The notes under the pieces: generated by a model
Databases searched by the model: none
Seen by the model: the letters and a program-made list of their open reading frames with translations, nothing else
Told to the model about the DNA's origin: nothing
Shown here: positions 7,407 to 64,000 of the stretch, one piece after another
Layout of the letters: every line of letters begins with the position of its first letter
Position numbering within the stretch: position 1 is the first letter of the stretch
Position numbers and translations under genes: made by a program
IMG/VR virus record: IMGVR_UViG_3300032156_000003
Span: 22,330-86,329 of that record
Strand: one strand, 5' to 3'
Origin: a virus
Length of the DNA: 64,000 nucleotides

Positions 7407-7961
7407 ATGAGCGACGCACTTCACGGCACCTACGAGGGCTTCGTTATCAAGCGCGAAGAGGGCGACGCGGCGACTGATACCCCGCTCGGACGCATCAAGA
7501 TTCGCATCCCCGGCATGATGGAAGAGACGTCGTGGGCCTACCCGAGCGGATGGGGGAAGAACCAAAACGGACCCGTTCCGCAACTCGGCGACATGGTCGA
7601 GGTATTCTTCATCGCGGGGCGGCGCGACTCCCCACGGTGGCGGCCGTCGCATCCAGGGCAGGGCGAGACGTTCCCCGAGTTCGTGCATCCCGACGTCGCG
7701 GTATGGGGAGATGATAACCTCCGAATCATCCGCGACCCGCGCGACGGGCAGAAGTACACGTGCATCCGCGCGATGGAGAAGGTGAACGGCGTTGACGATG
7801 TGCTCGTCGAAATCTTCATCTCTCACGAAGGGCGCGCGCTTCGCATATACGGAGGTGCAGGGATAAAAATCGAGAGTGAGGGGGAGTTGTCCATAGATTC
7901 GAGTGGCGACGTTGACGTGCAAGGTCGGAAGGTCTTGCCGCGCAACAAGCCGCTCGCGTGA
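7407..7961 (+). CDS. Baseplate spike protein (gpV / gp5 OB-fold)
   Basis: 'LGRIKIRIP....SWA.P......VPQLGDMVEVFFIAG...PRW' OB-fold motif. Confidence 0.85.
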   Translation: MSDALHGTYEGFVIKREEGDAATDTPLGRIKIRIPGMMEETSWAYPSGWGKNQNGPVPQLGDMVEVFFIAGRRDSPRWRPSHPGQGETFPEFVHPDVAVWGDDNLRIIRDPRDGQKYTCIRAMEKVNGVDDVLVEIFISHEGRALRIYGGAGIKIESEGELSIDSSGDVDVQGRKVLPRNKPLA

Positions 7962-7969
7962 GGTAGAAC

Positions 7970-8758
7970 GTGGCAGCGCCGAACGTCTGGAAGCCGGTCA
8001 ACGATTTGGTGTGTCCGTTCCTGACACCCGTTGGGAGCATCGATGACATCTGCTTTCCGGGCGGTCTGTGTCTCTCTGCAATTCGCCCGCCGGACGATTA
8101 CCCGCGCATCTCCGATCTAGTCATGGCGCAGTTGGCGCAGATCGGCCCGGCGATGGCACCGCTCAAGCCGTTCTTCGACGTGCTCGATACGGCGCTGGCC
8201 ATCTTCAAGTGCATCGAGGCGATACCGGATTGCATCACCAAACTGGACCCAAGCGGGCTCATTAATTGCATTCCAGACCTCGTGGAGAAAATCAACCAAC
8301 TGCTCTCGCTGATACCACAGCTGACGATACCGCGCCTCATCATCCAGTTGATTCGCAACCTCGCGGCGTTTCTGCGGTCGCTTGCCGATGACCTGGACTA
8401 CCTCAAGCAACGGCTGGCGATGGTGGCACAGGCTATCAGCCGTGCGGCGGACCTGAACGACGTGACGTGGAGCGGTTTTCTGCAATGTGCAGAGCAAACC
8501 GTTACGGATGAATTGGATGCGTTGGCGCAGGCGTTACAGATGCTGGGCCGTATCATTCTGCTCGCCAATATCATGCTCTCTTTGATTTCCGGTGCGCCTG
8601 AGATTCCGTGCTTTGGTACAATGATGCAAGACATTGCCGTGCTTGATGATGTCATCGCGGCGATTCGCGCTCTGGCTGCGTTGCTCGAAGAATTGGCGAA
8701 CAAGATACCTGACCCGGAGATGGCAATAACTCTGCTGCTCAAGGGCGAGAAATGTTGA
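7970..8758 (+). CDS. Hypothetical helical protein in baseplate module
   Basis: GTG start with GAGG RBS; co-linear in the operon; function unknown. Confidence 0.6.
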   Translation: MAAPNVWKPVNDLVCPFLTPVGSIDDICFPGGLCLSAIRPPDDYPRISDLVMAQLAQIGPAMAPLKPFFDVLDTALAIFKCIEAIPDCITKLDPSGLINCIPDLVEKINQLLSLIPQLTIPRLIIQLIRNLAAFLRSLADDLDYLKQRLAMVAQAISRAADLNDVTWSGFLQCAEQTVTDELDALAQALQMLGRIILLANIMLSLISGAPEIPCFGTMMQDIAVLDDVIAAIRALAALLEELANKIPDPEMAITLLLKGEKC

Positions 8759-8765
8759 GGTCGAC

Positions 8766-9152
8766 ATGAGCGACGAGGAAGGACGGTTTGGGGTTGGATT
8801 GGCGATGCCGTTTGGCTTCGCATCCACTGACTTAAAGCAGGCTACGGGGACGCGGTTGCTTGAGATGAACCTCACCTTGGAGGTCGGAACGAAGCGTGGA
8901 GAACTCCCGTGGGATATGCACAGAGGTTCTCGCCTACACTTGCTCAAGCACACGAAAGTAGGGAAGACGGCTCGTATCGCATTGGCCGGATACCTCATGC
9001 AAGAAGCGCTTGCGTCTGACAATCGGATACGAGCTGGTGCAACCGAAGTGACCGGAACGGGTGGAGAGTTGCGGGTATCGACGGCATACGTTGAGCGTCG
9101 GTACAATGGAAGTGGCGGCGAGGGTCGGATAGATTACGAGGTGCCTGCGTGA
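8766..9152 (+). CDS. Baseplate wedge protein (gp25 / gpW-like)
   Basis: 'G.GLAMPF...T..GELPW....GSRL..L' motif; precedes baseplate J. Confidence 0.85.
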   Translation: MSDEEGRFGVGLAMPFGFASTDLKQATGTRLLEMNLTLEVGTKRGELPWDMHRGSRLHLLKHTKVGKTARIALAGYLMQEALASDNRIRAGATEVTGTGGELRVSTAYVERRYNGSGGEGRIDYEVPA

Positions 9153-10657
9153 CATTCGAAGCCGAAAATTACGACCACACGGGGCGCGATCAACCAGCTC
9201 TTGACGCTCGTCTGCAAAGTTTGTTTTTGTCCGTGTTCCCGGCGTGGACTGATACGACAACCCGCAACATGGCAAACGTCATTCGCAGTGGTTCTGCGTG
9301 GGTCAGTTCCGTCAACGACTACTACATGACGCGCAAGGCGCGCGGTGCATACGTCCCAACGGCAACAGAACGCCGGGATATGATAGCACTCGGGAAACGC
9401 CAGAGTTACGAGATGTCGGGAGCACAGGCCGCGACGTGCGACTTGACCGCAACGCTACTCAACGGGCCTCTCGCTGGCGACGTGACGTTCTCAATTAACG
9501 ACAAGGTGCAAACCGAAGATGTCGTCAACCCTGTCATCGGTGAGGTGCAAGCGACGGTCGTCATGGCAGCAGGCGCGACCACGGCAACTCTTTCGTGGAG
9601 GCACTGTCAGTCGAAAACGCAGACGTACACCGCGACAATCAACGCGAACCAAGAAGTATTCCTATCGGAAGGTCCGTACCTTGAAGATTCAGTGGCGTTC
9701 TCCACTGGACTCGGCGCGTGGACCGAAGTCGATTCGCTCGCTCTGTCTGGACCGACAGACCGTAACTTCGAGGTGTTGGTTGACCAGAACGACCGCGCAA
9801 CGGTGCGGTTTGGCGACGGCGTTAACGGCGCCGTGCCGACCGGTACGTTCACCATCTCCTACAAGACGGGAGGAGGGTTGACCGGGAATGTCGCCGAGAA
9901 TACCATCAAGAAGTTCGGCAAGACCTACGCCGACACGTTCGGGACACAGGCCATCTTTTCGGTTACGAACGCGGCGAAGGCGTCCGGAGGACTTGCACGC
10001 GAGACTGTCAATGCAGCTCGACAGCAAATCCCGTTGTCGAACACGTCTCCACGAACGACCGTAACCAGGTCCGATTTCGAGGTGCACGCTCTTGAAGTGC
10101 CGTCTGTTGCCCGAGCTCTCATGCTGTCGAGTGACGAGGACCTTGCAATCCCGGAAGTGGAAGGACGATTATACGTCGTTCCGGCGGGAGGTGGTGTGGC
10201 GAGTCAGGCTCTTCTCGACTCGGTCGAGACGATGGTCACAGTCACGTATCCTATGCTCACGAACTACAGCGTGCTCATCTCGACAGCAAGCTACCTCACA
10301 GTGAACGTGCGCGCCGTCATCTGGATTGCGGCGAACTACTCGGCGACGGCTGTCAAGACGGCTATACTCGCGGCGCTCGCTGCCTACTTCAACCCACTGT
10401 CCACGGACGGTAGCGCAAACACGCTAATCGATTTCGGCTACAACTATCGCGACGTCAACGACCTACCGTGTGGTGAAATTGCTCTATCGGATCTGTTCAA
10501 CCTCATCCGCGATATTCCTGGAGTGAGGAAAATCGGCACGGGACTAGACGATTTCACGCTGAACGGCGCGCACTCGGACCCGCCGATCTCAAATTGGCAG
10601 TTTCCAGAACTCGGTTCTGTCGTGTTGGTCAACGGCGCGACTGGAAATGTGATTTGA
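9149..10657 (+). CDS. Baseplate J-like wedge protein
   Basis: 'VRFGDGVNGAVP...Y.TGGG..GNV', 'A.GG...ET', 'R.TVTRSDFE..AL....VARA'. Confidence 0.92.
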   Translation: MTFEAENYDHTGRDQPALDARLQSLFLSVFPAWTDTTTRNMANVIRSGSAWVSSVNDYYMTRKARGAYVPTATERRDMIALGKRQSYEMSGAQAATCDLTATLLNGPLAGDVTFSINDKVQTEDVVNPVIGEVQATVVMAAGATTATLSWRHCQSKTQTYTATINANQEVFLSEGPYLEDSVAFSTGLGAWTEVDSLALSGPTDRNFEVLVDQNDRATVRFGDGVNGAVPTGTFTISYKTGGGLTGNVAENTIKKFGKTYADTFGTQAIFSVTNAAKASGGLARETVNAARQQIPLSNTSPRTTVTRSDFEVHALEVPSVARALMLSSDEDLAIPEVEGRLYVVPAGGGVASQALLDSVETMVTVTYPMLTNYSVLISTASYLTVNVRAVIWIAANYSATAVKTAILAALAAYFNPLSTDGSANTLIDFGYNYRDVNDLPCGEIALSDLFNLIRDIPGVRKIGTGLDDFTLNGAHSDPPISNWQFPELGSVVLVNGATGNVI

Positions 10658-10658
10658 C

Positions 10659-13193
10659 ATGGCGAATGTCGTTCTCAATCCGCTCTTCGCGACAGCCGAC
10701 CCGCTTGGTGAGCCTGGAGAGGCGGAGAACTGGGATCGAGTCTCGCACCAACACTATCCGGGCTTCGCTAAATTCCGACAGCCGCATTCGTTCTACGCGA
10801 CCTCAGAGCGGTTTCAGTTCGAGGACGCACCGGCGCGGGTTGTGGGTACTGAGCCGTTTGAGTACGGGCGCGCGACGGCTGTCGGGTTAACGACAACGCT
10901 GACCGATTCGACGAAGAGTTGGACGGTCAACGAGTGGACGGGGCATACTTTCCGCATCGTCTCCGGTACTGGGTTCGGCTATGCGGACGTCACGGTTGCG
11001 ACAAACGACGCTACTACTCTGACATATGCAGCGCAGTTGTTCACACCCGACACGACGTCGCGCTACATCATGAACAAGCCGTTCGTGTTGCCCACAACTC
11101 CGCAGTGGACGTTCCCCGTGGCTGCCGTCTTCGTATTGCCGACGAACGCAATCCAATTCAACGGCGTTGACCTGCGGGCGGCCATCCCACCGGGTTCGAG
11201 TTTCCAGGTCGTCGGCACCCCACCGGATACGCAACTGGACGGGTACTGGACCGTAGTCAGCATCTCGCTTGTCGGCGCGGATTCCGTTGTCTATGTGTCG
11301 GAAGACGTGCTCGCCATGGCACCGGGCGCGGTCGCAAACCTCCCGCCTGTCCTCGCGTGTACGGCGCACGAACACGCGTCCCAGGCGAGCGTCACGGACA
11401 CGACGGCGTACCCGGTTGCCCCGCTCGGGGCAGGTCAGACAATCGAGGTGCGGATAGACCGTGGCGACGCGCAGATGATAGCATTTCTCGGTGGCGAGAC
11501 AACGGCGCAGAACGTTGCGGAAGTCATTGATGAACTTCTAGTTGGCGGATGGGCTCGCGTCACGGGTGGGCAGGTGCAAGTCTACTCGGATGCTCGCGGG
11601 CCGACGTCGTTTGTTCAGGTCGAACCAATTACTGCCGGACTAACGTTCGATATTCATGAGTCGCGCGGTTACGGACAGTGGGCGCAAATGTGGCCGCTGT
11701 ATTTCGTCAACGCGGCGGATGCCACGACGGCAGAAATCGCGGACGTCCTCGGTGAGCACTGGCACCACATTCGGGTACGGTATCCGGGCGGCGCGGCCGG
11801 TGACGCGGTGCATGTCGAGACGGACCGCAAGGGCGCGACGGCGACACTGTTCATCAATGACACTGTTGGAGGATTCCATGACGCGGCGGTTTGGCCGATT
11901 CCGGCGAGAATCACGGTCGGTCCATTTGCGAACAACATTCTCACGTTCGATGTTGATGGTTCTGGAGTTGTTATCACTTTGCTTGCTGGCGATGTCACCC
12001 CGGAACTCGTGTCAGGGGCGATCTCGGCAGATTTCGTTGCGGCCGGTGTAGACGCCACTTCGACCTACAGCGCCGATCGCGTGTACGTCGACAGCCGACT
12101 CCCGCTGGTTTGCACAGGGGGAACGGCGAACCCGGACATCGGATTCCCCGCGACGTTCACGACTTACGGTGGCGGGACGACTGCGCGCATTGTCGGGCTT
12201 GCTGGTGCGACGGCGGTAGGTGTTGACGATGTCGGTTGGTTCTCAGATTTCAGCGACGTGACGAGCGTCTTTGCACTGTTCTCTGCGGATTCTCCGGTCG
12301 CGTTAAATGCGGACACGTTCGCGTGGTCCGAGATTTATGCGACGATGGACTCGGTAACTAACTACTACGCTCCGTTTGCGAGTTTCTACGGACCCACCTG
12401 GACCGTCCTTCGCGAGTCGTTTGACGAGGCGTGGGCAAACGAATGGATCGAAACATACAATCCGTTCACGCCGGTTGCGGGCGCATGGAAGCCACCTGGC
12501 ATGTCACCATCCGCCCAGATTATCGGGCGCGAGTTGACGTTCCCGCTGACAGTGCGGAGCAACGCGAATAAACTGACCATCCGCAGTGAGACGGACGCGA
12601 TGTGGTACACCGTGACGCTGACAGGTGGAATATACGCGACGATTGCAGCATTGGTGGCGCATCTCAATGTGCAACTGGTCGTGACTGGCATCACAGACGA
12701 CGTAATTTTTGGATACCACGGGAATTCATTGACTCTTGGATGGGACGGCACGGCGAACGCGGACGGAGCACTCCATTTGGCGAGCGGGATTGGCCTTGTG
12801 GCAGGAGCGGACGTGCGGACTACATTAGGGCTGTGGCCCCTCGCCCCGGACACTGGCGCTGCGTCTGTTGCCGTTCCAGGTGGGTTCTACGATGGCGACC
12901 CTGTCGGTACGTGGGATGCCAGCAACCAGTACGGTGTGGACCCGTTCTCCAGGTTGGTGTTCGACACGGTGCAAGACCCGGACTTGGCGACGTGGCATCC
13001 GCAAACAAACGGGGACCTGTCAGCGCTGTTCAACACGACGAAGCCATCGCCAGATTCCTACGCCGAAAGGTTCGCGTTCCCGAACTGGTACGGGGCCTAC
13101 GTGACTCCTGGGGCGGGTTCCATTTGGACGGCGGCGATTTTCGACGCGACGATTGCACCTGAAATCTACGAAGATTTCGAGGAAGGTTGGTAG
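10659..13193 (+). CDS. Large structural baseplate/tail protein
   Basis: 844 aa, beta-rich, Thr/Gly/Val-rich; 'LTDSTKSWTVNEW' module; within the tail operon. Confidence 0.6.
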   Translation: MANVVLNPLFATADPLGEPGEAENWDRVSHQHYPGFAKFRQPHSFYATSERFQFEDAPARVVGTEPFEYGRATAVGLTTTLTDSTKSWTVNEWTGHTFRIVSGTGFGYADVTVATNDATTLTYAAQLFTPDTTSRYIMNKPFVLPTTPQWTFPVAAVFVLPTNAIQFNGVDLRAAIPPGSSFQVVGTPPDTQLDGYWTVVSISLVGADSVVYVSEDVLAMAPGAVANLPPVLACTAHEHASQASVTDTTAYPVAPLGAGQTIEVRIDRGDAQMIAFLGGETTAQNVAEVIDELLVGGWARVTGGQVQVYSDARGPTSFVQVEPITAGLTFDIHESRGYGQWAQMWPLYFVNAADATTAEIADVLGEHWHHIRVRYPGGAAGDAVHVETDRKGATATLFINDTVGGFHDAAVWPIPARITVGPFANNILTFDVDGSGVVITLLAGDVTPELVSGAISADFVAAGVDATSTYSADRVYVDSRLPLVCTGGTANPDIGFPATFTTYGGGTTARIVGLAGATAVGVDDVGWFSDFSDVTSVFALFSADSPVALNADTFAWSEIYATMDSVTNYYAPFASFYGPTWTVLRESFDEAWANEWIETYNPFTPVAGAWKPPGMSPSAQIIGRELTFPLTVRSNANKLTIRSETDAMWYTVTLTGGIYATIAALVAHLNVQLVVTGITDDVIFGYHGNSLTLGWDGTANADGALHLASGIGLVAGADVRTTLGLWPLAPDTGAASVAVPGGFYDGDPVGTWDASNQYGVDPFSRLVFDTVQDPDLATWHPQTNGDLSALFNTTKPSPDSYAERFAFPNWYGAYVTPGAGSIWTAAIFDATIAPEIYEDFEEGW

Positions 13194-25793: not shown

Positions 25794-26381
25794 ATGCTGA
25801 CACACCGGAAGATTGAGGGATTCAACCAGTTTCTCACCAAGATGGCCGGGGCCTACTTCACGTCGACAGACCAGACGGAGCAGGCGGGAAACAAAGCCGC
25901 CGCTGCGGACCTAGTAGAGAAAGTCCGCCTCCACACTCGTTACGCTTATGGCATCGCTCGTAACCAGCGCATTATTGAGGGTGTCATAAAGTCCATGAGT
26001 GACGCTCTGAAAAATGAGAAGCTGGAAGCGTGGCAGAAGGCGCATCAGGCGCTCGTCGCCGAGAAGCTGGACGCCGAAAAGATGGAGAAACGATACACCG
26101 CGCTAAAGATGGAGCACGACGTCGATAACCTCATCGCAGAAGCCAACCGTCGGCACAACGAATTGATGGAGTTGGAAGTTCTAGCTGACGACGGAACTCC
26201 GCTTAAACTGTACCGAATTCTCGTGACTGACCTTCCTGGTTGGAACGACCCAGCGGATGCTCCCGGCGACAAGCGCAACGGAATCGTGACGCCCATAGAT
26301 ATCGCGTTCTTGTTCGACATCGGCGTGCTGTTCGACCCGTCCGATGCCGAAGCCGCTAAGCCAGCCGGACCAGCGAACTAA
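25794..26381 (+). CDS. Hypothetical helical protein (possible fibre assembly chaperone)
   Basis: AGGGG RBS; last gene of the tail module. Confidence 0.5.
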   Translation: MLTHRKIEGFNQFLTKMAGAYFTSTDQTEQAGNKAAAADLVEKVRLHTRYAYGIARNQRIIEGVIKSMSDALKNEKLEAWQKAHQALVAEKLDAEKMEKRYTALKMEHDVDNLIAEANRRHNELMELEVLADDGTPLKLYRILVTDLPGWNDPADAPGDKRNGIVTPIDIAFLFDIGVLFDPSDAEAAKPAGPAN

Positions 26382-26410: not shown

Positions 26411-26440
26411 CTTGACAATCGCAACGGCAAGGCGCAAGCT
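26411..26440 (+). promoter_or_regulatory. Sigma70-like promoter with CTTGACA-N3-GCAA motif
   Basis: TTGACA 26412-26417, GCAA 26421-26424, weak -10 CAAGCT at 17-nt spacing; heads the recombination/replication module. Confidence 0.6.
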
Positions 26441-26496: not shown

Positions 26497-26766
26497 ATGC
26501 CAAGGTACTACACGCCTGAATATGCTCGCGTTAAAGTCCGAGCAGCCACGCACGGCATGACGTTCGCGCAACTCGCGGGGAAGTGTGGGGTGTCGCGACA
26601 GGCGCTTGAGATGTCGCTCAAGGCCGGGCGTCCCGCGCTGGCCGGGCTGGAACGTCTCGCCGGGGCGCTCAACATGGACCGTGACGCCGTGCTCGCGCCG
26701 CTCAAGAACTCGGAACTCATTGCGGCGGCCCTGTGGTACGCCGGGTTGACGGGAGGACAGCGTTGA
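26497..26766 (+). CDS. XRE/Cro-like HTH regulator
   Basis: 'GMTFAQLAGKCGVSRQAL......P....LERLAGAL' HTH. Confidence 0.85.
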   Translation: MPRYYTPEYARVKVRAATHGMTFAQLAGKCGVSRQALEMSLKAGRPALAGLERLAGALNMDRDAVLAPLKNSELIAAALWYAGLTGGQR

Positions 26767-27578
26767 CGACCTTGGACCACCTGTCGGCGTCGTCCTATGG
26801 CCAGTTCTTCAAGTGCCCGGCACAGTGGGACTACGTGCACAACCAGGGAATCAAGATTCCTCCCGGAATCGCGGCGCACGTCGGGAGCGGGTTGCACGGC
26901 GCGGCGGAAGTGAACTTCCGGCAGAAGATTGTCACGGGGGTAGACCTACCGGCATCCGACCTTGCCGACGCGGCTGTCACCAAGTACCGCGAGCGAGTCG
27001 AGAAGGACGGCGTGCTCTGTACGCGCGAAGAACGGCCCGCCCTTGGTCGTCTGCTGTCCGAGGGGGTAGACAGAGCGGTGAAATTCTCCCGCGTACTGGC
27101 GGCCACGGTAGCGCCCTTGTATCGCCCCGCCTCGGTTGAGCAGTTCGTCAAGTACCAGGGGCCGGATTCGCCGGTCCCGTGGGTGGGGTATATCGATCTC
27201 ACGACGGCGGACAACAAACTCGTCGACTGGAAAACAGCGGGCAAGCGGTGGCCGAAGGGGCGGGAGCACCGCGAGTCGCAAGCGACGGTGTACAGAAAGT
27301 TATTCCGCGCCGACCGTGGCATCGAACCGGCCTCGACGGTGTTCGAAGTGTTCTTCGATTCGAAGGACGGGGCGAAGCGAGACGACCGGACCACGGTGCG
27401 GGACGACGCGGATTGGGTGGCGTTGCAGCACGGAGCGGGAATCATGCTGCGGATGATAGACCACGGGGACTTCCCACCGTGTGTGCCGGGGTCGTGGAAT
27501 TGCTCGCCCACGTGGTGTGGCTTATTTTGGGTGTGTCGACACGTGTCCGAGCGGGTTCGGAGATTGCCGAATGTGTGA
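26763..27578 (+). CDS. PD-(D/E)XK exonuclease (RecB/Cas4-like)
   Basis: 'HLSAS....F.KCP', 'G.IDL......LVDWKT', 'Q...Y', C-terminal C..C...C cluster. Confidence 0.88.
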   Translation: MTTLDHLSASSYGQFFKCPAQWDYVHNQGIKIPPGIAAHVGSGLHGAAEVNFRQKIVTGVDLPASDLADAAVTKYRERVEKDGVLCTREERPALGRLLSEGVDRAVKFSRVLAATVAPLYRPASVEQFVKYQGPDSPVPWVGYIDLTTADNKLVDWKTAGKRWPKGREHRESQATVYRKLFRADRGIEPASTVFEVFFDSKDGAKRDDRTTVRDDADWVALQHGAGIMLRMIDHGDFPPCVPGSWNCSPTWCGLFWVCRHVSERVRRLPNV

Positions 27579-27653
27579 GGTCTGGCATGGTTTTTCTTTG
27601 TTCGGTGCGGCATGGCATGGCGAAGTGCTGCTGAGTTGAGTGTCGCAAAGTAT
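27574..27653 (+). repeat. 5-nt-periodic (N)GY-NN tract, 16 units
   Basis: TGT-GA GGT-CT GGC-AT GGT-TT TTC-TT TGT-TC GGT-GC GGC-AT GGC-AT GGC-GA AGT-GC TGC-TG AGT-TG AGT-GT CGC-AA AGT-AT. 15/16 units have GY at positions 2-3 and 7 are GGY. Confidence 0.85.
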
Positions 27654-27657
27654 AGAA

Positions 27658-27691
27658 ACCGCTCGGTGAGATCACGTTCAACCCGAGTGGT
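27658..27691 (+). other. Stem-loop directly 3' of the pentamer tract
   Basis: ACCGCTCGG pairs with CCGAGTGGT (one G-U). Confidence 0.65.
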
Positions 27692-27718
27692 CTAGGGAAA
27701 CGAAGAAAGGGGATTCCA

Positions 27719-28966
27719 ATGGCAGACAAGAATCAGGAATGGCAGGGGAACGTCAAGGTCGTGGACCCGCAGGCGCTCGCGCCGGTCGCGCCGATTCAGG
27801 CGCTCGCGCAGTCGGCGGCCGTCGACGCGGCGCGTGTGCTGTCGGAAACGCAGGCCATGGTGCTCATGGCGAGGTCCAACCCGCGCAACGAGTTCGCGGT
27901 GCTCAAGAAAATCAAGGCGATGTGCTCGCGGTTGCGGCTCGCCGAGAAGGCGCTCTACTCGTTTCCGCGCAGCAACAAGACCGTCACCGGCCCTAGCATC
28001 GATCTCATGGAGGCCATCGCCACGGCCTACGGCAACCTGGACCACGGGTGGCGGATGCTCGAAGAGGACGGCGAGTCCGTGCGCGTGGAAACCTACGCTT
28101 GGGACATGGAGACGAACTCGCGGACCCGTATCGAATTCTGGATGCGCCGCGTCCGCGACACGAAGCAGGGGGAGAAGGAACTCCATGACGAGCGCGACAA
28201 ATACGAGATCGTGGCGAACTACGCCAGCCGTCGCAAGCGCGCGTGCCTGGAGAAAATCATCCCCGTCGACATCGTTGAGCAGGCTGTCGAGTGGTGCATG
28301 AAGACCATCGAAAAGGGCGATGACGAGATGCCGCTGGTAGACCGCATCCGGGGTATGGTGTTGCAGTTCGCGGAACTCGGTGTCAGCCAAGTCATGTTGG
28401 AAAAGCGACTCGGGCACACGGTGGACACGACCATCGCGAAGGAACTGCCAGAGCTTCGCGCCATCGCCAACGGGTTGAAGGGTGGACGCGGGCGGGAGGA
28501 GTTCTTTGACCTCGCGCTGGCCGGGCAGGCTCCCGCGACGAAGGCCGCCCCGTCCGCGAAGGCAGACCCCGCGCCGGTCGAACTGCCCAAGGCTGCGGAC
28601 CCGCCGACGGTCGCCGAGAAGCCCAAGGCCGAACCGACCCCGGCCGCCGTCCACGTTGTGACGAAGCCCGAGACGTCCGAGCCCGCGAGCACGGCCACGC
28701 ATCGGCTGTTCGATACGTTGCTCGGCCGGTTGCACAACACCTACAAGATGACCGACGAGATGATTCGCGCGGCCCTTGGAGGACCCATCGAAGGTGCTCC
28801 CGTAGATGAATTAGAGCGGGTCATCACTGAAACCGAACTACGAAACAAGAGGACGCGCAAGGGGAAGAACCCGCCGCCGCTGAATCTCGTGCCGCAGGGC
28901 GAACCCGAGACGGGCGGACCTCCCGAGATGGAAATGCCGCCGAACGACCAGGATGAAGAATTCTAG
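27719..28966 (+). CDS. Putative ssDNA-annealing / recombination protein
   Basis: Follows the exonuclease; 'PR.E.....A.YSFPR...V.GPSI.L.EAIA..YGNL' and 'AWDMETN' N-terminal domain; Pro/Ala-rich linker. Confidence 0.6.
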   Translation: MADKNQEWQGNVKVVDPQALAPVAPIQALAQSAAVDAARVLSETQAMVLMARSNPRNEFAVLKKIKAMCSRLRLAEKALYSFPRSNKTVTGPSIDLMEAIATAYGNLDHGWRMLEEDGESVRVETYAWDMETNSRTRIEFWMRRVRDTKQGEKELHDERDKYEIVANYASRRKRACLEKIIPVDIVEQAVEWCMKTIEKGDDEMPLVDRIRGMVLQFAELGVSQVMLEKRLGHTVDTTIAKELPELRAIANGLKGGRGREEFFDLALAGQAPATKAAPSAKADPAPVELPKAADPPTVAEKPKAEPTPAAVHVVTKPETSEPASTATHRLFDTLLGRLHNTYKMTDEMIRAALGGPIEGAPVDELERVITETELRNKRTRKGKNPPPLNLVPQGEPETGGPPEMEMPPNDQDEEF

Positions 28967-56937: not shown

Positions 56938-57765
56938 TTACGGGTTGAGCATACCGACCAACTCTTCGATGCTCCACACGTGATCCGCGACTCCCGCTTC
57001 CATGACCGGGGTGACGCGCAGGGTCTTGTGAATCCGGCAGAAGTTGTAGTGCATGAAGTGGAGCGCGACGGCCGCGATGTGGTTCTCCACCTTCTTGCTG
57101 AAAGCGTTGGTCAACCGCGTGAACCGCCGCATGCTCATCCGCATCGTGAGGTTCTGGCGCTCTACGTAGCTCGTGGAGATGTGTTTGGGGTCGGGGTTGC
57201 CGGTTACCACGTCGGTCTCCGTCCCGGTGCACACGGGCGGGCTATAGCGCTTCTCGCCGTTGGGGTCCGTGCCGTACAGCTTTATGAGCACCGCGTAGTC
57301 AATCTCGGAACCGAACGCGCCTTCGACAGCCTGAAGGTACGGCTTGTGACCGTCGCTCGTGAGCTGCACGCGCTTCGCAAGGCGGGAGGCCAAGTCCGAG
57401 ATGAACTGCGCGGCGTCTTCGGCGTTCCTACCGCCGACGTGCCAAGAGGGAACCAACTTCGTGTCCGCGTCGATAGCCGTCCAGGTCCAGACGTCGCCGA
57501 TGCCCTTCTCACCCCTCATGTTCGCGGGGATGTTCTTCTGCTTGGCGTAGACGAAGGACCAGATCTCGTCGACCTGGACGCGCTCGCAAGGCAGTTTGAC
57601 GAGCGTTTTGTGCTGGTAGGCATCGCAGGCCGCGCCGAGGTCTAGGAGCAACTTGATGACGGTGTTGATCGCGGTGTCGGTCATGCGGGCCGTGGCACGG
57701 AGGCTGTTTCCCTCGACCAGCGCCGCGACGATCCGAACCTGCTTCTCTTTTGTGATCCTGTTCAT
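56938..57765 (-). CDS. IS1-family DDE transposase (single ORF)
   Basis: N-terminal HTH 'EGNSLRATAR', 'DEIW', 'W.W.A.D', 'SDG', 'TS.VER.N...R....R..R'. Confidence 0.92.
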   Translation of the reverse strand: MNRITKEKQVRIVAALVEGNSLRATARMTDTAINTVIKLLLDLGAACDAYQHKTLVKLPCERVQVDEIWSFVYAKQKNIPANMRGEKGIGDVWTWTAIDADTKLVPSWHVGGRNAEDAAQFISDLASRLAKRVQLTSDGHKPYLQAVEGAFGSEIDYAVLIKLYGTDPNGEKRYSPPVCTGTETDVVTGNPDPKHISTSYVERQNLTMRMSMRRFTRLTNAFSKKVENHIAAVALHFMHYNFCRIHKTLRVTPVMEAGVADHVWSIEELVGMLNP

Positions 57766-61649: not shown

Positions 61650-61651
61650 AA

Positions 61652-61710
61652 GCCGAAACCGCCTACGGGCGGTCGGCGCGGCTGGCTACCGCGCCCTGAT
61701 GAGGCAGCCA
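61652..61710 (+). ncRNA. Hammerhead ribozyme, type II
   Basis: GCC-GAAA-CCGCC(TACG)GGCGG-TC^-GGCGCGG(CTGGCTA)CCGCGCC-CTGATGA-GGC-AGCCA; complete core plus loop-I/3'-tail pseudoknot. Confidence 0.92.
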
Positions 61711-61724
61711 AGGAGGAGGGGAAC

Positions 61725-62132: not shown

Positions 62133-62306
62133 CAAAATGTCAGAGAAACAAGGAGGTCTAACGATGGGACGAAAACTGTACAATGTGATGCTGACCGACG
62201 CCGATCGCGAGCGGTTGGCAGACGAGTTCGAGCGGGCGTGGCGGCAGCGGTGCGAGATGGCGGCAGCGAAGTGGGAGTTCGAGCGCGGGAGGAGAATCGC
62301 GCCGAC

Positions 62307-62803
62307 GTTCTGAGGGAGGCCCAAGGTCATCCCTTGGGCGGTGCGTCCGAGCCTGCGTTATTCTCCTTTCGTGGGTTTGGGCGTACCGCCGAGGGGTTGA
62401 CTGAAAAAGGAGAACCGATGGACTACCCAAATCCGATGGTGCGCGAGACACGGATTAGAAATATGGTCCACAATCGGCACCTGTCCAAAAGCATCATGGA
62501 CGCGGGCTGGGGTTATCTGCGACAAAGGCTTGAAGTCAAAGCGGTAGAAGCTGGGCGTCAAGTCATCGCAGTTGAACCGGCGTACACGTCCAAGTCATGC
62601 TCCGATTGTGGAACCGTTTTCGAGGATCTGAAATTGAGCGACAGGTGGGTACGTTGTGATTGCGGTCTATCACTGGATCGCGACCACAACGCTGCCTTGA
62701 ACATTCTTAGGAGGGGACACCTCCTTCGGGAGTCAACGTGGGCTGCTAGAGGGCCGAGCGTATCCCGAGAAGCCGCTGGGTTTTAACCCATGCGGAGTGT
62801 CAC
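62307..62803 (+). mobile_element. Non-autonomous IS200/IS605-family element (internally deleted)
   Basis: Left hairpin CCCAAGG-TCATC-CCTTGGG; right end GAAGCC..hairpin..GGAGTGTCAC; no TSD; TnpB C-terminal remnant inside. Confidence 0.85.
62418..62786 (+). pseudogene. tnpB: TnpB C-terminal remnant (Zn ribbon plus RuvC-III)
   Basis: 'LSKSI.DAGW....L..KA..AG..V..V.PAYTSK.CS.CG...C.CG...DRD.NAA.NIL'; N-terminal two-thirds absent. Confidence 0.88.
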
Positions 62804-63703: not shown

Positions 63704-64000
63704 ATGACAGACCATTGTAAGAACTGTACGGTGCGAGGAGACCTGTCAGCCTGCGAAGAGGTGTGCGAGCGCAACAACTGCGACGTGCCTTTGTCGTGGG
63801 GAGCTGCGGCTCGAATCGATGCATTGTCGGAAGCGCGACGTGCCGAACGTGCGGCGCAAAGGACGTTTGACGAAGCCGATGAAAAGAAGATGAACGACCT
63901 TCGACGCGAATCGAATATGTGGAAGGAATCGTGGGAGGGTCAGAGACGCAACACCTTGGCTTTCATGGACGATGCCGAAAAGTTGAAGGCCATCATCCGC
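63704..64000 (+). CDS. Hypothetical protein (3'-truncated by window)
   Basis: GGGGAG RBS; frame open to the window end; N-terminal CxxC. Confidence 0.55.
   Translation, partial: MTDHCKNCTVRGDLSACEEVCERNNCDVPLSWGAAARIDALSEARRAERAAQRTFDEADEKKMNDLRRESNMWKESWEGQRRNTLAFMDDAEKLKAIIR

Follow-up and report, generated by a model that had tools for sequence, protein, structure and literature searches.

In a 64,000-nucleotide (nt) stretch of phage DNA, positions 22,330 to 86,329 of the virus record IMGVR_UViG_3300032156_000003 and called the window below, 16 consecutive pentamers followed by a hairpin stand between an exonuclease gene and a recombination gene. This 126-nt cassette is best read, with a probability of about 0.6, as a stand-alone (solo) gene for a guide RNA of the VIPR type, used with a Vipr protein supplied in trans. 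VIPR is a CRISPR-like silencing system of phages presented in two preprints of April 2026 (bioRxiv 10.64898/2026.04.26.720920 and 10.64898/2026.04.26.720927). As these preprints describe it, Vipr is a minimal RAMP protein that polymerises on the guide RNA, or vrRNA, with one protomer per repeat. The vrRNA consists of 9-16 GGY/NN units and then a structured tail; its NN pairs recognise double-stranded DNA, skipping one base per unit, and binding leads to transcriptional repression (10.64898/2026.04.26.720920, 10.64898/2026.04.26.720927). The methods of the first preprint add that internal degeneracy is frequent in vrRNAs and that units of the form NNNGG, YNNNG or NNNNG are used by other types (10.64898/2026.04.26.720920). 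The original prediction, made from the letters of the window, had pointed to guides with GGY-NN tandem units, and the two preprints confirm that such a system exists.

Solo vrRNAs in vipr-less phages and satellites have already been published (bioRxiv 10.64898/2026.10.15.759431), and the present finding opens no new class. What is somewhat new is the setting, a high-GC sediment phage, and the form, a free-standing cassette rather than something left behind by a vipr deletion. If the assignment is real, stand-alone VIPR guides extend beyond the SUSP1 family of Enterobacteriaceae phages and the satellites to an unrelated uncultured phage, which would support the idea that phages trade guides alone to exploit Vipr proteins made by others.

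A pentamer tract with a constant scaffold and variable pairs

The tract (27574..27653, + strand) covers 80 nt without any insertion or deletion and is made of 16 in-phase units of the form (N)GY-NN, the first of which overlaps the TGA stop codon (27576-27578) of the upstream exonuclease gene. The second position of the unit is G in 15 units and T in one, with an entropy of 0.3 bits, and the third is a pyrimidine in all 16 (nine T and seven C). The first position is looser (seven G, four T, four A and one C), and the fourth and fifth are near uniform, with an entropy of 1.8 bits each. Strict GGY is found in 7/16 units. These counts reproduce the predicted scaffold, and the list of variable dinucleotides drawn up earlier (GA, CT, AT, TT, TT, TC, GC, AT, AT, GA, GC, TG, TG, GT, AA, AT) is accurate. 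The sole off-scaffold unit is unit 5 (27594-27598); units 6-16 (27599-27653) form an unbroken run of 11 conforming units.

Such a tract is real and lies far above chance. At least 15 GY units out of 16 are expected at about 1e-11 per position, as calculated from a frequency of about 0.157 for such units across the genome. When both strands of the 86,329-nt genome are scored for GY in 16 consecutive units, the mean is about 2.5 and the runner-up to the tract reaches 11; the proposed scan for further 5-periodic tracts thus yielded none that is comparable. Likewise, no second place in the whole 86,329-nt genome has 8/8 GY or 6/8 GGY units. An origin by slippage, which the prediction had dismissed, was also rejected here. 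As a pentanucleotide microsatellite the tract is invisible to Tandem Repeats Finder, which reports nothing at a score of at least 30, and as a decayed pentanucleotide repeat it is not reproduced by simulation, since none of 200,000 uniform-decay runs kept G at position 2 in at least 15 units together with a pyrimidine at position 3 in 16/16.

The scaffold closely resembles that of known vrRNAs. In the four verified vrRNAs of the SUSP1 locus (read from KT454805; the SUSP1 Vipr is PDB 36pp), the pyrimidine at position 3 (Y3) is conserved in 100% of units, the G at position 2 (G2) in 93-100% and the G at position 1 (G1) in 60-100%, and AGT and TGT units are present. The order of conservation, Y3 at least equal to G2 and both far above G1, with random NN, is the same in the tract. 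When read in the frame Y-NN-G-G, the tract corresponds to the YNNNG form named in the methods of the first preprint, with the pyrimidine and the second G kept and the first G free. The number of units, 16 or 11 if only the unbroken run is counted, is within the published range of 9-16, and the layout, a variable tract and then a hairpin as candidate 3' end, fits that of vrRNAs. The tract shares with the type II vrRNAs of SUSP1 a 5-nt G-pyrimidine scaffold with two free bases, the number of units, an intergenic position in a phage genome and occasional AGT/TGT units. It differs from them in mixing C and T at the pyrimidine, which is almost always T in SUSP1, in a tail without sequence likeness to the SUSP1 tail, in having no vipr or vap gene adjoining or anywhere in the 86-kb record, and in that its own promoter and target were not found.

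Comparable tracts in other viral contigs

A scan of IMG/VR for 14 in-phase GY units returned at least 80 loci, and the counts given here refer to 80 loci among the matches listed. In 56 of the 80, the locus is a tract with high-entropy NN. The arrays range in G1 from near 1 to near 0, intermediate values included, and some belong to high-GC phages with C at the pyrimidine. With a SUSP1-family hidden Markov model (HMM), a Vipr open reading frame (ORF) is found in 41 of these 56 tract loci, arrays of the YNNNG type included; arrays with G1 near 0 or intermediate have adjoining Vipr genes. For example, locus L080 has a 20-unit tract with a G1 frequency of 0.70 and a vipr gene that starts 9 nt after the tract, and the arrays of L090 have G1 frequencies of 0.71-0.9. 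Vipr-adjacent tracts in IMG/VR also show units of the AGT/TGC/CGC type, as does the tract here, and a single tract followed by a GC-rich hairpin is seen in other viral contigs (L066, L076, L082, L091 and L117). The scaffold, the loose G1 and the tract-then-hairpin layout therefore all have natural parallels. Guide strings are not shared between the tract and any of 170 census tracts.

Single tracts without a Vipr by the same profile are present in G004 (56 kb), G011 (105 kb) and G005. To judge from the sequences of G004 and G011, solo single-tract guides may be common. Three loci, L066 (9846-9960), L076 (- strand, 1596-1700 of the reverse complement) and L064, carry single tracts of 14-15 units; their viral records measure 56, 24 and 105 kb, respectively, and are negative with the Vipr profile. 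In L066 and L076 a GC-rich hairpin comes directly after the tract. These three may be solo guides outside Enterobacteriaceae phages. A further point in favour of a VIPR guide comes from L057 (IMGVR_UViG_3300037504_000599), where positions 7882-12122 hold a complete VIPR locus with a 22-unit tract, vipr, a gene for a 163-amino-acid (aa) partner (vap) and a 16-unit tract. This locus lies 1 kb upstream of an exonuclease gene (39% identity) and a recombinase gene (42%) that are distant homologues of the genes flanking the tract here.

The tract and its hairpin form a discrete accessory cassette

The tract lies between an exonuclease gene and a recombination gene, as the prediction had stated, and occupies the coding strand of a 140-nt spacer. 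Upstream is the gene for a PD-(D/E)XK (Cas4/RecB-like) exonuclease (26733..27578, + strand; PF12705 at 1.3e-13 and phrog_69 exonuclease), and downstream is the gene for a 415-aa putative single-strand annealing or single-stranded DNA (ssDNA)-binding recombination protein (27719..28966, + strand; phrog_3657 at 1.3e-73), whose tblastn relatives carry the annotation 'RecE-linked protein' or 'ssDNA binding protein'. Both genes are context only and stand outside the element.

The predicted hairpin, a candidate 3' tail of a vrRNA (27653..27694, + strand), is present and starts directly after the last unit of the tract. Its 9-bp stem pairs 27658-27666 with 27683-27691, includes one G-U pair and is accompanied by 4 inner pairs; an alternative fold has 4 outer pairs and extends to 27653-27694. 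The fold of 66 nt has an energy of -18.6 kcal/mol (z = -2.0). The hairpin has no U-run and is therefore not an intrinsic terminator, and terminator prediction makes no call at it. Rfam gives no match at the locus, either with E-values up to 10 or in a scan of the whole window at gathering scores, and an exact search of IMG/VR with the tail sequence gave 0 matches.

The record is a linear sequence of 86,329 nt with 59% GC and a CheckV completeness of 91%. The sole close relative of this phage is the sister phage IMGVR_UViG_3300030613_000008 (G001), which is collinear with 80-88% identity. Homology between the two ends exactly at the exonuclease stop and restarts where the following gene has its ribosome-binding site, and these are exactly the edges of the 126-nt cassette made of tract and hairpin (27580..27705, + strand). 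In the same slot (L001 6847-7161), the sister phage has an unrelated insert, about 300 nt long and lower in GC, that contains a small ORF, cysteine-rich and of about 95 aa. The same replacement is seen in independent soil-metagenome contigs of another study, in which 323 different letters separate 27579 from 27731. The homology boundaries together with the replaced insert therefore mark a discrete accessory cassette and not a drifted spacer. From these alignments, the exonuclease-recombinase spacer appears to be a swap site for small cassettes. A comparable tract is absent from the whole sister genome and from 14 more distant metagenomic exonuclease relatives; in BLAST searches against 50,697 phage records, the operon has no match and the cassette has only 26-nt chance matches. 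Relatives had been expected to show conserved GY and variable NN. The contrast between scaffold and pairs holds within the tract itself, but no tract-bearing relative was found.

How a solo guide could work

If the cassette is a solo vrRNA gene, the tract would be transcribed in the sense direction together with the operon of a helix-turn-helix (HTH) gene, the exonuclease and the recombinase. By analogy with the SUSP1 structures, Vipr would polymerise on the resulting RNA with one protomer per pentamer, hold each unit by its G and its pyrimidine and present the two variable bases, and the 3' hairpin could cap or protect the end of the RNA. Assuming the rule of SUSP1, all 16 dinucleotides, or just the 11 in units 6-16, would read a double-stranded DNA target with every third base skipped, and binding would silence the transcription of a rival mobile element. 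The Vipr itself might be encoded in the further 9.6 kb of the phage or be provided by a resident prophage or a co-infecting phage; supply by a prophage or a co-infecting phage is the 'guns for hire' arrangement of solo vrRNAs (bioRxiv 10.64898/2026.10.15.759431).

The published solos were found in VIPR-null phages of the SUSP1 family and in F5 satellites of Enterobacteriaceae phages (10.64898/2026.10.15.759431). They resemble the tract in that a guide is present, vipr is absent and Vipr is presumed to act in trans. They differ in location, being at the site of a vipr-vap1 deletion or in satellites, whereas the cassette described here stands free, as a 126-nt insert, within a recombination operon. 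They also differ in having predicted targets (vipr, satellites and other vrRNAs), whereas no target was found for the tract. As regards a vipr-vap deletion site, the record contains no vipr fragments and no trace of a deleted vipr. Solo guides may be free-moving 'moron' cassettes that spread among unrelated environmental phages, independent of the vipr locus, as hinted by the Vipr-less tract records G004, G005 and G011.

Searches for a Vipr, a target and a transcript

A number of results weigh against a solo vrRNA gene. Within the tract, only 44% of units have G at position 1, a share below that of all four SUSP1 vrRNAs, and unit 5 interrupts the scaffold. The hairpin is unexceptional in a GC-rich genome and is weak evidence when taken alone, because 15% of random 50-nt windows are equally or more stable, and neither a pseudoknot nor conservation of the tail is demonstrable. 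No promoter of its own was found for the tract, with no sigma-70 consensus nearer than a TTGAC-N5-CAA box at 26412, and no RNA runs containing the tract sequence are listed. It is also a singleton, with no other carrier in the sister phage, IMG/VR, the metagenome scan or the phage collection.

Nor was a Vipr found in the record. Three profiles, namely a SUSP1-type HMM (119-sequence, type II), an iterated diverse profile from the census and the 31-member alignment A2, were searched in all frames of the 86-kb record down to 30 aa and gave best E-values of only 0.6-4.6. As positive controls, the SUSP1-family HMM recovers Vipr in the 41 of 56 control loci mentioned above and is therefore a usable detector, and A2 scores 9e-54 on G006. 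The record is also negative with phmmer using the SUSP1 Vipr, with phrog_4652 and with the RAMP families of Pfam. Comparison of 27 unknown ORFs by hhalign revealed no Vipr, a weak test that also missed the bona fide RAMP protein Csf2. The earlier statement that no dedicated RAMP gene adjoins the tract is therefore correct, and with the validated Vipr profile it extends to the whole 86-kb record; the stand-alone RAMP gene that had been proposed as a search object did not turn up. This absence applies to 86 kb. In the assembly of the source sample, the phage is a contig of 95,903 nt, and the 9,574 nt that it has past window position 64000 (the right end), outside the record, may encode a Vipr.

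The search for a target ended similarly. With one base skipped per unit, the best scores equal those of shuffled-guide nulls in the phage's own genome, the sister genome, the type IV-B relative G003 and 1.1 Mb of census loci; the scans covered 1.4 Mb in total and used skips of 0, 2 and 3 as controls and sub-guides of 8, 10 and 12 units. The NN string, contiguous or gapped, has no target above chance in the sequences searched. Exact searches with the gapped pattern of units 6-16 gave 0 matches both in IMG/VR and among 185,579 prokaryote genomes (GTDB), and the pattern of units 8-16 likewise has 0 matches. A guide directed at a rival allele of a neighbouring gene was tested for and not found. 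The exact pattern of units 6-14 has one match, in the GpA-type terminase gene of an unrelated low-GC viral contig (L045 7038-7063), where nine units fall on the peptide TQQASMIAD with the variable pairs on codon positions 1-2. It was rejected as a target: the flanking units fail to match, and 1-2 chance matches are estimated for a pattern of this size.

Alternative explanations

The cassette could also be a dead relic, a former vrRNA that is decaying in a lineage with no access to Vipr. The loss of G1 in 9/16 units, the broken unit 5, the lack of even a vipr fragment in the record and the failure to find a target would all fit such a history, but we consider it unlikely. With G2 in 15/16 units, Y3 in 16/16 and no indel in 80 nt, the tract is unlike the product of neutral decay. 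Loss of G1 alone gives the YNNNG unit, a functional form according to the methods of the first preprint, and the same loss is seen in the Vipr-adjacent tracts of L080 and L090. Moreover, the cassette is cleanly bounded and its operon is intact. Quite unlikely, in our view, is a cis-regulatory leader outside VIPR, in which the GY array would serve another oligomeric RNA-binding protein or units 4-5 would mask the ribosome-binding site of the recombinase gene. The location of the tract, in a 140-nt spacer just upstream of the recombinase start and with no own promoter found, would suit a leader. In the minimum-energy fold, the U-rich units 4-5 (27588-27604) pair with 27701-27718, a stretch that includes the Shine-Dalgarno region of the 415-aa gene (about 27706-27713), in 8+4+3 pairs, and the off-scaffold unit 5 lies within the complementary stretch. 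However, this fold is no better than those of shuffled sequences (z = -1.1), and the sister phage has the same gene and ribosome-binding site behind an unrelated insert, so the tract is not needed for this gene. A model for the first variant is TRAP, which binds 11 (G/U)AG triplets separated by 2-3-nt spacers in the trp leaders of Bacillus. TRAP leaders are like the tract in having a periodic short motif, free spacers and one protein subunit per repeat, but they differ in motif, in the irregular spacing of 5-6 nt, in the number of repeats (11) and in their attenuator context. No TRAP-like gene is present among the annotated ORFs, and the motif, period and number of units of the tract coincide exactly with those of vrRNAs.

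It is highly unlikely that the tract has no function as RNA and is a feature of the DNA, such as a protein-binding or bending array, or an accident of composition. Such a reading would fit the lack of listed RNA runs containing the sequence, and a model of independent sites predicts a few tenths of one chance 15/16 tract per about 250,000 windows. Against an accident, vrRNA tracts are far commoner than that in phage DNA, as the 56 of 80 listed census loci demonstrate. Against a DNA element, the motif is confined to one strand, the transcribed one, and a 5-bp GY period is not known to us from any DNA element. Extremely improbable is the last alternative, that the tract serves the array-less type IV-B Csf complex of this phage as its dedicated guide or assembly RNA. 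The type IV-B RAMP genes that the original prediction had placed about 20 kb downstream are real: they lie at 48.6-51.3 kb, some 21 kb from the tract, within a csf1-cas11-csf2-csf3-cysH-like cassette at 47.4-51.3 kb. This cassette is homologous to that of the type IV-B Csf ribonucleoprotein of Mycobacterium sp. JS623, a RAMP filament without a cognate CRISPR array (PMC7937560). No cognate RNA is known for type IV-B systems (PMC7937560), and the phage studied here has both tract and csf cassette, of which the sister phage has neither. If the tract were this RNA, type IV-B would be a VIPR-like system that reads pentamers and its RNA question would be answered. The JS623 complex, however, binds heterogeneous RNA in a 6-nt register, Csf2 flipping a base every six nucleotides (PMC7937560), whereas the tract keeps strictly to 5 nt. 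In addition, G003, whose Csf2 is 74% identical, has no tract in 43 kb (44% complete), and the co-occurrence of tract and csf genes comes down to one genome pair that differs by many other cassettes. Among the matches listed, 0/80 tract-bearing loci have a Csf2 or Csf3 homologue, as against 41/56 genuine-tract loci with a Vipr. Of the three options that had been offered, an orphan guide, a guide served from outside the window and an RNA partner for the type IV-B RAMPs, the third is thus not supported, and an orphan guide or one served from outside the window, that is, a solo vrRNA gene, is best supported.

Genomic surroundings

Upstream of the row of HTH, exonuclease, tract and recombinase is a TTGAC-N5-CAA box (26412..26424, + strand), a candidate promoter recognised by motif enrichment. 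The motif occurs 11 times in the window against 1.9 expected, an excess of about six-fold in which one palindromic site is counted on both strands. Its sites, among them 25752, 26412, 35726, 47177, 51274 and 60892, are mostly upstream of gene starts, which suggests a phage-specific promoter or operator box. The box at 26412 is likely the promoter that would drive sense co-transcription of the tract.

The sole neighbouring gene of unknown function is an ORF of 195 aa (25794-26381), which is kept in the tract-less sister phage. Among PDB sequences it matches an alpha-helical repeat protein, and its look-alikes in the ESM Atlas are only viral hypothetical proteins. Its AlphaFold model is all-helical with low confidence (pLDDT 53); helix is predicted over residues 1-126, so by this weak model it is not an RRM protein.

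Further downstream, a type II hammerhead ribozyme is encoded at 61651-61713 (+ strand), with 54.9 bits for Rfam RF02276, whose gathering score is 37. A response-regulator receiver gene of 135 aa (PF00072, 61725-62132) begins 11 nt after the ribozyme. The ribozyme has no pentamer tract beside it and is therefore not a ribozyme-vrRNA array. Close by, an ORF of 182 aa (62238-62783, + strand) is a probable TnpB remnant, reduced to the Cas12f1-like TNB domain of the C-terminus (PF07282, 3.4e-22). A gene for an IS1/DDE-type transposase (56938-57765, - strand) is found 5 kb upstream of this TnpB-like ORF, and both are located in or beside segments that are absent or rearranged in the sister phage.

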